A stretch of 64,000 bases of DNA, from positions 956 through 64,955 of the forward strand of contig JAAYPG010000016.1 of the NCBI GenBank assembly GCA_012519905.1. The letters are read 5' to 3'. Positions within the stretch are counted from its first letter, which is position 1. Each line of letters starts with the position of its first letter. Source of the stretch: Clostridiales bacterium. Lineage in GTDB: Bacteria > Bacillota > Clostridia > Lachnospirales > Lachnospiraceae. The translations under genes and the position numbers were made by a program. Under the pieces are notes generated by a model that saw nothing but the letters and a program-made list of their open reading frames with translations, ran no database searches and was not told where the DNA came from. This document shows positions 1,406-56,368 of the stretch, in pieces.

Positions 1406-3064
1406 ATGATTATGGAGAAAATGCCAGAGGTTGTTTTATTAGACGACGGAAGTAAAATATGGGAGAACAAGTTTGAAAAATTTGAAGCAAAGGTATATTT
1501 GCCAAAGTGCGACCCAATCACAGATGTAATAAATTATGGATTTATGACACCTTATTTGCTGGTATTTGAAGAAAACAAATATAGCCCACATGAGGCAAAG
1601 AAGTTTGCTGATGAAAGTGGTCTCTCTAAGATTGCAGCCAAATACGGAGGCAGTGTTGTATTTATCTATCCTACCAATGAGGGAGGCTGGCACAAGGCTC
1701 CTGCTGATCTATTTGCTTCTATAATATCTGAGACGAAAATCAGCCAGTATTATAAGGATGGCGCAGCCATAATGCGTAACAGATTTACCGGCAACTGGGA
1801 AGGCATCTATATCAGGGGTGCCTTGCTGCGCAGTTACTTATATGGCTTTGGTGCATCTGCAGATTATATCGCCAAGTATTGCCTACAGAAGATAGAGGGA
1901 GATGGTTTGTACGGCAAGGGAGATATCACTCCAGTTGTCTGTATTTTACAGAATCTAAGTGTACTACCTAATCCTCAAAGAAGAGATATTCCTGTAATTT
2001 CTATAGGTAATAGTGCCGCTGCAAATGATGCTCTTAAGGCGGGCCTAGATGACCTACTTGTTAAGGAGACTGCTGATTACATAGATGATTTTAATGGCTT
2101 TATAAAAAAATATCGTCGCATGGTTGGATATCTGGATGTAGAACCTAATCTAGAAGAAATGGGAATGGTTGTCGAGCCTGGTTATTGTCTGGTTCCAACA
2201 TCCGTTGATAATCGGGGGGATGACAAAGATAGCAAGGAGCATAAAATAGGATATGTAGCATATTACAACCAGGGAATTTTGGATAAGGAGGAAGGGGTTC
2301 CTCTGGTTCTTTGTTTCCATGGTGGTGGAGATTCTGCCATGTGTATGGTGGCTTTGTCTGACTGGCATTTGGTTGTAGCAAAACATAATTTCCTTCTGGT
2401 AAGTGTTGAAAACCACTTAAATAGTACCGCAACTGAAATGATGGATTTGATTGCCCATCTGAAAGAAAAATATAATATTGACAGTGAAAGAATATATTCT
2501 ACTGGATTTTCCATGGGTGGTTGCAAGACCTGGGATATGTTTCAGGAGTACCCCAAGGTATTTGCAGCGGTTGCACCTATGTCCGCAACCTTTGATGTGG
2601 GCCTTAATGTGTTTGGTCAGCCTGTTCAAAACATTAATCAGGAAATAGCTCTTCCAGTATTCTATGTAGGTGGAGAAGATACACCCCTTCCTGAGCTACC
2701 TTTCCAGGAAGCAAAGTGCCTTAATCGTATGGCCTATGTTCTTAAGGTTAATAAGGCTAAAACAAAATATGATGTACAGTTTGAGGAAAAAGACCAGTGG
2801 ACAAATCCTATATGGGGTATTGATGGAGATGTAATATGTAAAGCAAAGGACGATGTTAGAGGCAGTATTCTTACCATGCATTTATTTGAAAGTGATAATG
2901 GCTGCTGCTATAGCATTTTCGCTAGTGCTAGTAATCAATCACATGAAATGAGGCATCTTAATTGTGAAAATGCCTGGAAATTCTTCAGTCAATTCCGTCG
3001 TCTACCCAACGGAGATATAGTAGGCGGTAAAATGGAAGATATCATAAAGCTCTATGACAATTAG
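1406..3064 (+). CDS. alpha/beta-hydrolase (PHB-depolymerase/esterase-like C-terminal domain, unassigned N-terminal ~290 aa)
   Basis: VLCFHGGG oxyanion motif, GFSMGG nucleophile elbow, QSHE candidate catalytic His; AAGGAG RBS. Confidence 0.75.
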   Translation: MIMEKMPEVVLLDDGSKIWENKFEKFEAKVYLPKCDPITDVINYGFMTPYLLVFEENKYSPHEAKKFADESGLSKIAAKYGGSVVFIYPTNEGGWHKAPADLFASIISETKISQYYKDGAAIMRNRFTGNWEGIYIRGALLRSYLYGFGASADYIAKYCLQKIEGDGLYGKGDITPVVCILQNLSVLPNPQRRDIPVISIGNSAAANDALKAGLDDLLVKETADYIDDFNGFIKKYRRMVGYLDVEPNLEEMGMVVEPGYCLVPTSVDNRGDDKDSKEHKIGYVAYYNQGILDKEEGVPLVLCFHGGGDSAMCMVALSDWHLVVAKHNFLLVSVENHLNSTATEMMDLIAHLKEKYNIDSERIYSTGFSMGGCKTWDMFQEYPKVFAAVAPMSATFDVGLNVFGQPVQNINQEIALPVFYVGGEDTPLPELPFQEAKCLNRMAYVLKVNKAKTKYDVQFEEKDQWTNPIWGIDGDVICKAKDDVRGSILTMHLFESDNGCCYSIFASASNQSHEMRHLNCENAWKFFSQFRRLPNGDIVGGKMEDIIKLYDN

Positions 3065-52086: not shown

Positions 52087-53436
52087 TTAACCAAGGACGA
52101 TGCCTGTTATGACGAAATAGAATATCAGTGATATGGCATCTACTATGGTGGTTATGAAGGGACTAGCCATTACAGCTGGATCAAAGCCAATTTTCTTGGC
52201 CAACATGGGAAGAGTAGATCCTACCATCTTGGCAATTATTACTGTTACTAATAAGGTTATACTTACTATCAGGGAAATACTAAAGCCTACCTTGTCAAAT
52301 AGCATTAGTTTAGCGAAATTAAATACGGAAAGTGTTAATCCACTTAATATAGCTACTTTTGATTCCTTCCATAGAACCTTGAATATATCTTTAAACTCCA
52401 GCTCGTGTAATGATAGACCGCGGATAATGGTTACTGAAGATTGACTTCCTGAGTTACCACCTGTGTCCATCAGCATAGGGATATAAGCGGTAAGAACCAC
52501 ATATGTTTTTAGAGCATTTTCAAAGCGTGTTATTATCATACCCGTAAATGTAGCTGATATCATCAGTATAAGCAACCAGGGCATTCTACTCATCCATATA
52601 TCCATTGTAGTTTTCTTAAGATAAGGTGTATCCGAAGGGGTTATCGCAGCCATTAATTCGATATCCTCTGTTGTCTCCTTCTCCAGTACGTCCCAAGCAT
52701 CGTCAATGGTTACAATACCGACCATTCTATTATCCTTATCCACCACTGGCAATACAGTCAAGTCGTATTTACCAAACATGTTGGCTACTTCTTCCTGATC
52801 CTCAAGGGTATGGACTGAAATCACATTCCTGTCCATTAGCTCTTCGATTGTGTGGTCATCCTCAGAGAGTATGATAGTCCTCAGGGTTATATAGCCAATC
52901 AAATGATTAACATTATCGGTAACATAACAGGCATCTATAGTCTCGCTATCAAGGCCAATTCTGCGGATTTTTCCAATAGCATCAGCTATAGTCATGTCAG
53001 ACCGTAAACTGACAAATTCAGTGGTCATAATGCTCCCAGCTGAATCCTGTGGGTAATTTAATATCTGATTGATGGTCTTACGGGTACTCTCTGTTGAATT
53101 CTTAAGTATCCTCTTTACTACATTGGCAGGCATCTCCTCCAAAATGTATACCATATCATCAATGTACAGATCACTAATCATTTCCTTAAGCTCTGTATCA
53201 GAAAAGCTATCGATAAGTGTCCTCTGTTGATCAGTATCCATCTCTATAAATGTATCTGATGCCAAGTCCTTAGGTAAAAGCCTAAATACCAAAGTCAAGC
53301 TTCTTTCTGGAAATTCGCTTAAAAGCATGGCTAAGTCATAGGGATTTATAGCTGAGATAGTTTCCTTAAGGTCTTTGTACCTTTTTTCCTCAATCATTCT
53401 AAGTATGTCTTTTTCAAAATCTGTAAATTTTGCCAT
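52087..53436 (-). CDS. mgtE: magnesium transporter MgtE
   Basis: MgtE N-domain, YPQDSAGSIMT CBS pair, R.PWLLILM, DTGGNSGSQS, DPAVMASPFITTIVD. Confidence 0.95.
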   Translation of the reverse strand: MAKFTDFEKDILRMIEEKRYKDLKETISAINPYDLAMLLSEFPERSLTLVFRLLPKDLASDTFIEMDTDQQRTLIDSFSDTELKEMISDLYIDDMVYILEEMPANVVKRILKNSTESTRKTINQILNYPQDSAGSIMTTEFVSLRSDMTIADAIGKIRRIGLDSETIDACYVTDNVNHLIGYITLRTIILSEDDHTIEELMDRNVISVHTLEDQEEVANMFGKYDLTVLPVVDKDNRMVGIVTIDDAWDVLEKETTEDIELMAAITPSDTPYLKKTTMDIWMSRMPWLLILMISATFTGMIITRFENALKTYVVLTAYIPMLMDTGGNSGSQSSVTIIRGLSLHELEFKDIFKVLWKESKVAILSGLTLSVFNFAKLMLFDKVGFSISLIVSITLLVTVIIAKMVGSTLPMLAKKIGFDPAVMASPFITTIVDAISLIFYFVITGIVLG

Positions 53437-53508
53437 ATTCTTCTCCCTCCAAGCATAACTAAAGTATCATGTCTGATACACTCTACCATACCTGGCAGGA
53501 GTAAGGCA

Positions 53509-53610
53509 TCAATTAAATGAAGCAACAATAATAACAGACACAACCATAGTTATGCTTATAATTTTTCTTTTTAAACCAAATATGCTGCTACAACTACCGT
53601 CAGCATCCAT
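53509..53610 (-). CDS. candidate 33-aa mgtE leader peptide MDADGSCSSIFGLKRKIISITMVVSVIIVASFN
   Basis: GAAAGGGG RBS; lies between a sigmaA promoter and mgtE; internal 11-mer pairs with the sequence adjacent to the mgtE SD. Confidence 0.6.
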   Translation of the reverse strand: MDADGSCSSIFGLKRKIISITMVVSVIIVASFN

Positions 53611-53657
53611 TATTATATTCGCCCCTTTCATATTGTTTATTACTTTTCTACATAGAT

Positions 53658-53686
53658 AGTCTAACTTCTAATTAAAAACATGTCAA
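53658..53686 (-). promoter_or_regulatory. sigmaA promoter of mgtE leader
   Basis: TTGACA-17 nt-TAGACT on the minus strand. Confidence 0.75.
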
Positions 53687-53724
53687 GGTAATTATTTACT
53701 ATATGTCAAACGTTTATTAGGTTG

Positions 53725-54650
53725 CTATAGTATTACCAAGGAGGCATCCTTATAAAGCGCCCTTGCTATAGCTATCTTCTGTGATTGACCTCCAGAGAAC
53801 TCCACTCCCTGACTATCGTACTCCTTACCAAACAAGGTCTTTATCCCATTAGGAAGCTCCATAATTTTATCCTTAATCTCTACCTCATCAAGTATTTTAT
53901 TCACTCTTTCATCATCTTCTCCTGCAGGCTTACATGTAATATTCTCCTGTATAGAGAAATTAAATAGCTTGTAATCCTGAAATACCGCCGCAATACTAGC
54001 AAGAAGTATCCGGCCGGAATCTGGAGAAAATAATCCAGTCAGCAGTTTAACAAAAGTAGTTTTACCTGCACCGTTAATGCCTACAAGGGCGAGCTTTTGT
54101 CCTGCAGGTATTTTTAAAGAAAAGTTCTCATATATGTTCTTATCTGTATCAGGATATTTAAAGCTTACATTGTCAAACTCAATTTCTAGAGGAGTATCTT
54201 TATCTAAGGCTAAAAGTTCTCCCCCTGTCTCTCCTAGATCTTCATCTAAGAACTTGAAAAGATCCTTGACATGCATTTGCTCTCTTATAATATCTGTAAT
54301 ACTCCCCGATAAGGATGTCATCTTCTGTGACAATGTAGATGTAGCAATAATAAACATAGAAAAATCGGCGATGGGCATTCCTTTTACCGTCAGATATGTA
54401 AGGATACCATAAGTAGCAATATCAGATAGCAAAAGTGTCATTAGCGCTATAAAAGTGCCGTCATCTTAGGGTATGAGAAGTATATCAGCCATTGTTGAAA
54501 AAAGTTAAATATGACTCCCGCAGCAAAAAAGACTGCTGCTATTCTTATAACCCCCCCATAACTCGGGAGCAGGCCCTGTAAGGTAGTCTATTAAAACCTT
54601 TGGCAAGGCAATGGATAAGAGGGGTACAACCAGGTAGCTAATGGTTTAAC
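53725..54650 (-). pseudogene. ABC transporter (fused permease/ATPase) remnant
   Basis: GINGAGKTT and FSGGQ retained; short deletion after GRILL; stops before Walker B; N-terminal TM fragment (VVPLLSIALPKVLIDY..) upstream is frameshifted in a G7 run. Confidence 0.75.
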
Positions 54651-56185: not shown

Positions 56186-56258
56186 GGGGCATTAGCGCAG
56201 CTGGGAGCGCACCACACTGGCAGTGTGGGGGTCAGGGGTTCGAATCCCCTATGCTCCA
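56186..56258 (+). tRNA. tRNA-Ala (GGC)
   Basis: Acceptor GGGGCAT/ATGCTCC, anticodon arm CCACA-CTGGCAG-TGTGG, TTCGAA loop; CCA not encoded. Confidence 0.95.
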
Positions 56259-56294: not shown

Positions 56295-56368
56295 GGAGTC
56301 ATAGCTCAGCTGGGACGAGCGTTCGCTTGACGTGCGAAAGGTCATGGGTTCGAACCCCTTTGACTCCA
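56295..56368 (+). tRNA. tRNA-Val (GAC)
   Basis: Acceptor GGAGTCA/TGACTCC, anticodon arm TTCGC-TTGACGT-GCGAA, TTCGAA loop; one T-stem mismatch; CCA not encoded. Confidence 0.9.

Follow-up and report, generated by a model that had tools for sequence, protein, structure and literature searches.

Locus and features

By the window we mean the whole 64,000-nt stretch of Clostridiales bacterium DNA analysed here (contig JAAYPG010000016.1, Lachnospiraceae). Its minus strand carries mgtE, a Mg2+ channel gene, and the element under study is the 5′ leader of that gene, which contains an upstream open reading frame (uORF; ORF, open reading frame) of 33 codons. A preliminary description, made from the letters alone, had proposed that this leader ORF is coupled by base-pairing to the mgtE ribosome-binding region and forms a Mg2+-responsive switch without an M-box. 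The features from the promoter to the transporter gene are as follows, with SD standing for Shine-Dalgarno sequence.

53658..53686 (-): sigma-A-type promoter, -35 box TTGACA at 53686-53681, spacer of 17 nt, -10 box TAGACT at 53663-53658
53622..53629 (-): leader SD GAAAGGGG, 11 nt 5′ of the ATG, read from the sequence
53509..53610 (-): leader ORF, ATG at 53610, 33 codons, TGA at 53511-53509; peptide MDADGSCSSIFGLKRKIISITMVVSVIIVASFN
53557-53547 (-): arm 1 of the 11-mer pair, AAGCATAACTA, perfect complement of arm 2
53461-53451 (-): arm 2 of the 11-mer pair, TAGTTATGCTT, adjoining the mgtE SD
53450-53443 (-): mgtE SD GGAGGGAG; the mgtE ATG is at 53436-53434
52087..53436 (-): mgtE, the regulated gene, encoding a Mg2+ channel of 449 aa; 475 bits on TIGR00400 (cut-off 232.75)

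The promoter, ribosome-binding site and ORF lie where the preliminary description had put them, and its two 11-mers are exact complements, the second abutting the mgtE SD. The promoter matches 10 of 12 consensus positions, and transcription of the leader would start near 53651. The arrangement TTGACA-N17-TAGACT/TAAACT is also found upstream of the leader in related loci (L001, L003-L007, L206, L208 and L211). An in-frame ATG farther upstream, at 53631, is not kept in relatives. The mgtE homologues of the relatives have the Pfam domains MgtE_N, CBS and MgtE.

Metatranscriptome contigs, available as assemblies only, hold the leader and mgtE on one RNA. Two of their ends, at 53630 and 53621, lend weak support to the promoter and start.

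That the leader has no M-box was borne out. Neither the M-box (RF00380, gathering score 44 bits) nor any other relevant Rfam family matched 53300-53850 in a scan at E<=10, and at gathering thresholds two tRNAs were the only matches in the whole window.

Leader family in Clostridia

An MgtE protein scan with one genome per species gave 80 loci. At 61 of them an ORF of the form M-D/E-[ATGS]-[GDE]... with an ATG start lies 100-460 nt from mgtE, and at five more the start is GTG. Hosts include Herbinix, Capillibacterium, Hydrogenispora, Christensenellaceae, Ruminococcus, Oscillospiraceae, Acutalibacter, Lachnospiraceae and others, and MgtE identity among the loci goes down to ~55%.

Metagenomes were scanned with the pattern ATGGAYNNNGGNAGTAN{3,27}GGNCGAAGT, of which mgtE is not a part, and yielded at least 120 loci. 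Among the 120 matches listed, the leader is followed by mgtE in 95 and by an MgtA-type Mg2+ P-type ATPase (TIGR01524, 1093 bits) in two; the contig is too short to tell in 18, there is an IS630 insertion downstream in one, one contig is chimeric, and three are chance matches to the pattern. Since the leader precedes both MgtE and the unrelated MgtA-type ATPase, it tracks Mg2+ import and not one gene family.

The two ATPase loci (L124 and L181) have leaders beginning MDTGSSNDIKPKGRS... and MDAGSNGAGSNGRS..., respectively. At the insertion locus (L081, minus strand) the leader is otherwise typical (MDAGSSSGTSAGRSQREPK...), and ~150-750 nt past its ATG comes an IS630-family transposase gene, in the place that mgtE takes in related contigs.

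Genomes and metagenomes together hold at least 139 unique leaders of 20-45 codons that start M-D-[ATGS]-[GDE]-[SGN]-[ST]. The conservation check proposed for the peptide thus came out positively, with N-terminus, SD, start codon and length recurring in 139 unique copies. The window leader has the family traits: its MDADGS start fits the N-terminal pattern, an SD precedes AUG-GAY, it has 33 codons, the 3′ end of its ORF pairs with its own translation initiation region (TIR), and the mgtE SD lies in an anti-SD hairpin. The codon pattern ATG-GAY-GCN-GAY-RGT-AGT is common to the window and group B. An nhmmer profile built from members outside the window group had its top window match at 53616-53587 (E = 0.049).

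This large family in Clostridia has no entry in Rfam 15 and no description in the literature searched. At gathering thresholds, Rfam models in 24 related loci gave no family for the leader itself and genuine M-boxes only 5′ of it. The leader peptides match no Pfam or NCBIfam model, and when ten of them were looked up exactly in a collection of 15 billion proteins, eight were absent and the other two were each a 'hypothetical protein'.

An M-box (97-105 bits) stands 5′ of the leader in L017, L018, L032 and L054. L017 gives the clearest layout, over 2620-3001: M-box at 2620-2779, intrinsic terminator at ~2786-2820 (GCTCATATCG...CGATATGAGC then a T-run, read between M-box and leader), leader SD and ORF (ATG at 2836), then mgtE. 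Judging from such arrangements, M-box and leader are separate modules in series. The Mg2+ link proposed at the outset is strengthened by this series arrangement in some genomes, and by the occurrence of the leader ahead of both MgtE and the MgtA-type ATPase.

Other RNAs were seen at these loci. Upstream of mgtE in L038 (2526-2892), an M-box (95.8 bits) is followed by a full-length Clostridiales-1 RNA (RF01699, 106.6 bits), which stands where other loci carry the leader ORF, inside an Mg2+-transporter 5′ leader; Rfam classes it as a small RNA gene. A lysine riboswitch on the opposite strand upstream of the leader in L065 (2536-2707, -) and a 6S RNA downstream of mgtE in L054 (4376-4572, -) are probably unrelated neighbours. 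The cultured species Herbinix luporum and H. hemicellulosilytica (L203-L205) have a sister, Herbinix-type leader in a conserved neighbourhood, with LytR_cpsA_psr upstream and an aldo/keto reductase downstream of mgtE.

Coding signal in the leader ORF

In leaders from genome loci, SD-like tracts (GAAAGGAG, GTGAGGTG, AGAGGCGA, AAGGAGG) stand 7-11 nt 5′ of the start. Frame 0 is open for 20-45 codons in 139/139 leaders (median 30). Frames +1 and +2 have a stop before codon 21 in 37% and 86%, and their open lengths range over 1-140. The distance from the AUG to a conserved CGA varies by whole codons only. Mean column entropy over codons 2-14 is 0.97, 0.99 and 1.37 at codon positions 1, 2 and 3, and all four third bases are found at GCN(3), ACN(6), GGN(12) and CGN(13). 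From these patterns the leader ORF is likely translated, and its sequence appears to be under coding and RNA constraint both. Gene callers mostly skip the ORF.

About 14 N-terminal residues are the conserved part of the peptide, and the C-terminal codons track RNA pairing. Within the window leader, conservation is limited to the N-terminus (MDADGSC) and the SIT codons (AGCAUAACU). The acidic start noted in the preliminary description is a family property: position 2 is Asp in 48/49 aligned leaders and Glu in 1/49, the window type also has Asp at position 4, and Gly or Ser stands at position 5. The remark that the peptide lacks Pro also held, for the window peptide and for the family N-terminal consensus. 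The hydrophobic tail did not fare as well, as relatives end ...DVSFFIDASI, ...KHPYFAHAPVI or ...TFH.

Two candidate functions of the peptide were dropped. A membrane peptide or type I toxin was rejected because the tail is not conserved and no family matches; the MgtS-like membrane modulator offered in the preliminary description fell with it. Ribosome destabilisation by long D/E runs was rejected because the peptide has 1-3 acidic residues, and this idea is left solely on the precedent of Salmonella mgtQ.

Two leaders, L206 and L207, carry a shortened ORF (~537-581) with the peptide MDDDGSYSILYLKL, ended by a tandem UAA UAA directly before the AAGCAUAACUA segment. L206 reads MDDDGS, with Asp at positions 2-4, and both of the alternative pairings described below are weak in it (z ~1 and 0.1).

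Predicted structure of the leader

The 236-nt leader has a minimum free energy (MFE) of -70.6 kcal/mol, against -46.7 +/- 4.1 for dinucleotide shuffles (z = -5.8; 0/200 as good). The MFE fold consists of two long helices, P1 and P2, whose four strands we number as segments 1 to 4.

53587..53635 (-): P1 5′ strand, segment 1, with the leader SD, AUG and codons 1-8, from MFE folds
53510..53555 (-): P1 3′ strand, segment 2 with the ORF 3′ end, leader codons 19-33, from MFE folds
53474..53508 (-): P2 5′ strand, the anti-TIR strand, with UGCCUUA at 53508-53502 against the mgtE AUG region and CUCCUGCC... from 53501 against the mgtE SD
53431..53469 (-): P2 3′ strand, with segment 4 (UAGUUAUGCUU+G, 53461-53450; the 3′ strand of the ALT′ core described below), the mgtE SD and the mgtE AUG

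P1 has 42 bp (53635-53587 with 53555-53510), a stability of -38 kcal/mol, and encloses the leader SD and AUG together with the entire ORF. P2 has 25 bp (53501-53474 with 53469-53443) and an outer 6 bp (53508-53502 with 53437-53431), and folds to -28.7 kcal/mol on its own. In this predicted fold the mgtE SD and AUG are both buried in P2. The two small hairpins that the preliminary description had placed between the 11-mer arms are instead one long anti-SD hairpin, P2. It had seen the pairing to the mgtE TIR correctly, and it had missed P1 around the leader ORF, P2 itself, and the adjacency of P2 to the leader stop codon: the first nucleotide of the P2 5′ strand UGCCUUACUCCUGCC comes directly after the leader UGA. 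TGA or TAA followed by TGCCTTACTCCTGCC is kept in most window-type relatives; L211 and L206 deviate.

The leader fold is unchanged at 55 C, at -36 kcal/mol. That temperature is relevant because the window organism is found in biogas and compost metagenomes.

No intrinsic terminator is predicted in the window leader, and there is no U-tract 3′ of P2. Together with a hairpin that sequesters SD and AUG, this argues that control is translational and not by intrinsic termination.

P1 is a family-wide feature. In 128/139 leaders (92%) the sequence that pairs best with the leader TIR (-18 to +9) is found 0-40 nt before the leader stop, and over the 139 leaders the TIR duplex has a mean of -22.5 kcal/mol, against -16.9 for shuffled TIR. 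In a first window-group alignment of 8 sequences, the Herbinix-type L007 included, 79% of P1 cells are paired versus 39-47% when one strand is slid, and 13 pairs change on both sides (0/500 shuffles). With 11 window-type sequences 79% are again paired (37-47% slid), and the change count is not significant (68/500 shuffles). No consensus structure emerged when RNAalifold was applied to a MAFFT alignment of 79 representatives, because their 3′ halves align poorly; in its place we relied on duplex statistics and on alignments of concatenated segments. In L181, one of the two leaders ahead of an ATPase gene, P1 is very clear, GUGAGGUGAAAAAAAUGGACGCGGGAAG with CUUUCUGCGCCAUUUUUCACU.

The RNA contigs show two population variants in these helices (RNA strand). 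One is U>A at 53480 in the upper P2 stem, where the window makes a U-A pair that relatives lack. The other is G>A at 53545, turning ACUAUGG into ACUAUAG and Met22 into Ile. Both variants equal the state in relatives L002 and L003, and the 11-mer is untouched.

Alternative pairings

The 11-mer pair belongs to an alternative helix, ALT′, in which the P1 3′ strand pairs with the P2 3′ strand (2:4).

53531..53558 (-): ALT′ 5′ strand, with the core U+AAGCAUAACUA at 53558-53547 and a window-specific extension GUUGUGUCUG.UAU at 53544-53531

The 11-mer plus a U-G pair is the invariant core. The ALT′ 5′ strand overlaps the P1 3′ strand, so P1 and ALT′ are mutually exclusive. In the window the ALT′ duplex has 29 bp and -28.3 kcal/mol (z = 5.1 vs shuffles). 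Over the nine window-type leaders (MDADGSC...SIT...; the window or WIN, L001, L003-L006, L208, L210 and L211, three of them fetched independently) it has 26-29 bp, z = 1.9-5.6, and -21 to -35 kcal/mol. L206, with its truncated ORF, reaches z of only 1.0.

In the 11 window-type sequences the ALT′ core has 93.2% of cells paired versus 29-38% slid. It shows two compensatory pairs (U-G to A-U or G-C; A-U to C-G), and its covariation score of 0.097, vs 0.053 for shuffles, was reached by 12/500. The 11-bp helix is kept in all 11 window-type relatives, with two compensatory pairs, and in this one subgroup only. An extension of the 11-mer as a conserved in-register helix was rejected, at 57% of cells paired. 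The extension flanking the core is lineage-specific, yet complementary, each lineage having its own 26-29 bp duplex. Segments 2 and 4 form a perfect Watson-Crick match, and 1:2 and 3:4 contain many G-U pairs; in this distribution the complementarity is non-transitive and looks tuned.

ALT′ is absent from the Herbinix-type and other family members. In the Herbinix-type leaders (MDAGSSNGIPDRS...; H. luporum, H. hemicellulosilytica, L007, L213, L218 and L219) the 2:4 pairing has z of at most 1.1, and a different pairing, 1:3, has z of 2.3-3.3.

This 1:3 helix, ALT, is the alternative of the main family. A segment that contains the anti-SD (ACUUCC), and whose start in most representatives is at -3 to +25 nt relative to the leader stop, finds its complement in conserved blocks of codons 3-16 (GGAAGUA, GGCAC, GGNCGAAGU). 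In L118, for example, GGAAGU..CGGCACG..GGCCGAAGUA faces UACUUCGGCC..CGUGUCGG..ACUUCC. The ALT duplex has a mean of -30.0 kcal/mol, vs -21.7 for a coding-region control. In a 28-sequence alignment 74.8% of cells are paired versus 39-50% slid, with 31 double-change cells (0/500 shuffles). Because ALT shares strands with P1 and P2, two states result, with both TIRs closed or both open.

The window has no 1:3 helix (z ~0), and its window-type relatives have z from -1.2 to 1.7. An 'SD mimic', segment 1 pairing with the anti-SD, was therefore rejected for the window and is real in the main family only. By sequence comparison the window falls in a variant subgroup with 2:4 in place of 1:3. That one and the same exclusivity is achieved by two different helices argues for selection on the alternative state, and the swap of ALT for ALT′ in one clade is the best argument that the 11-mer helix is functional.

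Coupling models

Coupling was modelled with partition functions in which the ribosome footprint is masked. Energies for the window, with P2 kept or 2:4 forced, are as follows.

Free RNA: P2 kept -69.9, 2:4 forced -48.5 kcal/mol
Ribosome on the leader TIR: P2 kept -45.2, 2:4 forced -43.9 kcal/mol
Ribosome on SD through codons 3-4: P2 kept -42.8, 2:4 forced -42.8 kcal/mol

The mean unpaired probability of the mgtE SD in the nine window-type leaders is as follows.

Free RNA: 0.15
Ribosome from SD to codon 4: 0.28
Ribosome on the stop codon (footprint +15 nt): 0.43
Ribosome on the stop codon (footprint +18 nt): 0.64

With the +18 footprint at the stop, SD access goes up in 9/9 window-type leaders. 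With the ribosome from SD to codon 4, 2:4 is the leading pairing (probability 0.48-0.97) in L004, L005, L006 and L211. Family-wide (n=63), the SD is unpaired at 0.27 in free RNA and at 0.32-0.34 with the ribosome on the last codons. Nine compact variants have only 17-24 nt between the leader stop and the transporter start.

The models support the proposal that ribosome progress through the leader affects access to the mgtE SD, which is predicted to change with ribosome position. In the window itself the local anti-SD hairpin is at no point outdone by the 11-mer helix, and the two draw level only when a ribosome holds the leader SD through codons 3-4. The predicted trigger that fits more consistently is a ribosome on the leader stop codon, which abuts the anti-TIR strand.

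Proposed mechanism

On balance, we think it probable that the mgtE 5′ leader is a uORF-dependent translational switch, of a Clostridia family that stands ahead of Mg2+ importers. Translation of the ORF, the direction of coupling and the Mg2+ signal are inferred. In the OFF state, the predicted ground state of the free RNA, P1 would bury the leader SD and AUG with the 33-codon ORF, and P2 would bury the mgtE SD and AUG. In the ON state a ribosome would load on the leader, most plausibly during transcription before the P1 3′ strand exists, and keep P1 apart. The freed P1 3′ strand (core AAGCAUAACUA) could then pair with the P2 3′ strand (UAGUUAUGCUU beside the SD) as ALT′, and a ribosome reaching the UGA would sit directly on the anti-TIR strand UGCCUUACUCC. 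Both ALT′ and the stop-codon ribosome would open P2 and let mgtE be translated, which would be positive translational coupling.

A ribosome at the 3′ end of the leader ORF may open the transporter TIR by a different route in each type of leader. In the window type it would cover the anti-TIR strand directly; in the main family it would release segment 1, which captures the anti-SD; and in the compact type the proximity of stop and start may suffice. We commit to positive coupling because these three routes converge.

Mg2+ is the presumed input because the leader precedes two unrelated importers, stands in series with the M-box in some genomes, and has precedents. Mg2+ could act on leader initiation or P1 stability while the RNA is being transcribed. 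It could also affect how long ribosomes dwell, or whether they abort, at the conserved acidic N-terminus (Asp2, Asp4), as is reported for Salmonella mgtQ and mgtL. A bolder version, which we hold only tentatively and think unlikely, is that the conserved N-terminus of 14 residues (M-D-A-G/D-S-S/T-x-G-x-x-x-G-R-S/R, with MDADGSC in the window type) acts as a nascent regulatory peptide, which would sense Mg2+ or ribosome integrity from the exit tunnel and pause or abort the ribosome on the leader.

Alternative explanations

Several findings weigh against a positive, ribosome-driven switch, and some of them could be read as the work of RNA alone. In that reading, to which we give a minority share of our belief, P1+P2 versus ALT or ALT′ would form a riboswitch-like device that senses Mg2+ or a ligand directly, with the ORF incidental or secondary. 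The blocks that are most strongly conserved in the main family (GGAAGUA, GGCAC, GGCCGAAGU) each pair with the anti-SD region, so that the RNA level can explain much of the 'peptide' conservation. The third base of codon 5 (AGU) is invariant and that of codon 13 nearly fixed (CGA in 38/49), and the C-terminal half of the peptide is not conserved. L206 and L207 tolerate an ORF of only 14 codons, with UAA UAA just before segment 2. The free-RNA fold is exceptionally stable, and some members (e.g. L118) have ALT, the ON pairing, as their ribosome-free MFE. An incidental ORF would not, however, be expected to have SD-like tracts that vary in sequence and are always correctly spaced, an AUG or GUG start in every copy, a narrow 20-45-codon range in frame 0 unlike frames +1 and +2, frame-preserving length differences between AUG and CGA, three-base periodicity at codons 3, 6, 12 and 13, and a stop at the 5′ edge of the anti-SD strand. 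Nor was a conserved unpaired core like a ligand pocket identified.

Other difficulties concern the energetics and the sign of coupling. With a P1 as stable as -38 kcal/mol, initiation on the leader must be kinetic and co-transcriptional. In the window the SD goes from 0.23 to 0.28 unpaired with the standard footprint and reaches 0.59 only with +18 nt, and the 2:4 probability is <=0.1 even when that pairing is iso-energetic at codons 3-4. Covariation in the ALT′ core (12 bp) is marginal, resting on two pairs whose arms are also bound by P1 and P2, and with ALT′ formed the anti-SD could still reach the SD by a pseudoknot. In the main family a ribosome on codons 5-14 lowers SD access (0.19 vs 0.27), which makes the sign of coupling depend on where the ribosome dwells. 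Inverse coupling, an attenuation logic, builds on this: efficient translation of the leader over segment 1 would mean mgtE OFF, and failure or abortion at low Mg2+ would mean ON. Segment 1 (codons 3-16) captures the anti-SD in the main family, and masking it lowers access by more than 0.15 in 16-19% of sequences and raises it in 0-3%. The members with ALT as ribosome-free MFE fit as well, the acidic N-terminus would suit ribosome destabilisation or abortion at low Mg2+, and in Salmonella the translation efficiency of the mgtQ uORF correlates inversely with mgtB (PMC8092293). We consider this sign somewhat less likely again than the RNA-only device. In window-type leaders the ribosome-free MFE is OFF (P1+P2), and all modelled ribosome positions raise or keep SD access, except the +15 stop footprint in L211 (0.17 to 0.16). 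The stop-to-start spacing of the compact variants is typical of positive coupling, and without translation P1 should form first and lock the leader OFF.

That the ORF encodes a functional small protein, a membrane modulator like MgtS, MgtR or PmrR or a type I toxin, is very improbable. The window peptide does end in 17 hydrophobic residues, and has a weak PmrR match (14.8 bits vs a cut-off of 30), and the ORF is annotated as 'hypothetical protein' in two relatives. Such a tail is nevertheless found in the window and a few relatives only. Close relatives end …MDVSFFIDASI, …KDVFIDIDASFI or …IKHPYFAHAPVI, and C-termini are otherwise variable and often charged. Conservation of the ~14 N-terminal residues, C-terminal codons that follow RNA pairing, the lack of a Pfam or NCBIfam match, and a place directly upstream of Mg2+ transporters that is fixed across orders all speak against a free-standing product. 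Chance, finally, as a random ORF with random complementarity in AT-rich intergenic DNA, deserves almost no credence and is already refuted by conservation. In an AT-rich sequence of 361 nt, a single exact inverted repeat of 11 nt is not very improbable (0.02-0.08 by a rough estimate) and would not be decisive alone; 139 unique conserved leaders, the fold z of -5.8, the duplex z of 1.9-5.6 in nine window-type relatives and 93% paired cells vs 29-38% slid are another matter.

Neighbouring features

Upstream of the mgtE promoter, 53725-54441 (-) holds an ABC-transporter ATPase fragment (read from the sequence). It ends at what we take, by eye from the sequence alone, to be the expected Walker B position. 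Metatranscriptome contigs of three runs part from the window at exactly 53718 and 53740, which points to a junction, ~35 nt 5′ of the -35 box, left by a deletion or rearrangement specific to the strain. An ABC ATPase gene stands at the same place in L001, L209, L211, L213, L218 and L219. On the plus strand, ~2.5 kb away from the leader, the window has tRNA genes at 56186-56258 and 56295-56368; L001 and L005 have a similar pair close to mgtE, which indicates that synteny is conserved.

Relation to known systems

In mgtL, a 5′-UTR (untranslated region) leader ORF, translation dynamics select RNA structures in response to Mg2+, and the MgtL peptide is Pro-rich. Like the leader described here, mgtL of enterobacterial mgtA and the related corA leader (PMC11552253) place a leader ORF in the 5′ UTR of an Mg2+ transporter gene. 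mgtL differs in its Pro-rich peptide, as there is no Pro in the window peptide or the consensus, and in acting on Rho-dependent termination, where the present leader has a hairpin sequestering SD and AUG and no predicted intrinsic terminator.

The closest tested analogue is Salmonella mgtQ, an 8-codon uORF between mgtC and mgtB whose translation releases the sequestered mgtB ribosome-binding site, an effect that requires the ribosome-destabilising residues Asp2 and Glu5 (PMC8092293). Both systems have a short ORF 5′ of an Mg2+ transporter gene, a ribosome-binding site locked in a stem-loop, four RNA segments with alternative pairings, acidic residues near the N-terminus (Asp2/Glu5 in mgtQ, Asp2/Asp4 here) and translational control, and in both uORF occupancy would release the ribosome-binding site (as predicted here). 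mgtQ is of 8 codons, intergenic and enterobacterial, whereas the present ORFs are of 20-45 codons, in a 5′ UTR and clostridial. There is no sequence similarity; the uORF SD and AUG are here also buried, in P1; and the 2:3 helix of mgtQ has its counterpart in 2:4 (window type) or 1:3 (rest of the family).

The ermC and ermB leaders also have a leader ORF, an SD in a hairpin and a ribosome position that chooses among exclusive helices. Since P1, P2 and ALT′ share strands, mutual exclusivity of the ermC type is present in the window leader. The erm leaders differ in relying on antibiotic-stalled ribosomes and a 2:3 anti-sequestering helix, in having the leader TIR free, and in having no relation to metal homeostasis; the gene context here is Mg2+ import, versus resistance for ermC.

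The M-box (ykoK, RF00380) fills the same niche, the 5′ leader of mgtE or mgtA in Firmicutes. It contains no ORF, and the window fails its covariance model. In Mycobacterium tuberculosis the pe20 M-box controls the uORF rv1805A (PMC12810186); as at L017-type loci, genes related to Mg2+ are preceded there by an M-box and then a small, conserved uORF. The pe20 M-box gates uORF translation and Rho-dependent termination, whereas the L017 M-box has its own intrinsic terminator and the leader is independent; rv1805A and the leader peptides are unrelated. The 'mgtE motif' of the Breaker laboratory (SRC-65-1) is a structured candidate riboswitch with the SD and AUG at the stem base, reported from 32 representatives in Thioalkalivibrio only (PMC11109978). 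It resembles the present element as a structured RNA upstream of mgtE with SD and AUG at a stem, and differs in having no uORF and another structure. The leader works, on our reading, like the leader-ORF switches of the mgtQ/mgtL and erm types; it is a member of none of them, nor of the M-box class.

Significance

Tested models for the control of Mg2+ transporters are the M-box of Bacillus, the enterobacterial mgtL, mgtQ and mgtCBR leaders, and the mycobacterial M-box with uORF. If confirmed, the leader would be another route of Mg2+ transporter control, used among others by Oscillospiraceae, Ruminococcus and Lachnospiraceae of gut and rumen, and a candidate nascent-peptide or translation-coupled Mg2+ sensor in Gram-positive anaerobes. 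It would include cases of an M-box and a uORF switch stacked in series. The family would also offer a natural experiment in RNA-switch evolution, as sister subgroups keep P1 and P2 and differ in 1:3 versus 2:4. For annotation, it adds a small ORF that is conserved yet mostly left uncalled, and a cis-regulatory element that Rfam 15 lacks.

Experiments are feasible because the cultured H. luporum and H. hemicellulosilytica carry a close variant. Should the nascent-peptide reading be true, the leaders would make up a new family of arrest or abort peptides, widespread in Clostridia of gut, rumen and digesters and acting on two unrelated Mg2+ importers, and some of these genomes would control Mg2+ uptake in two tiers, by the M-box at transcription and then by the leader at translation.

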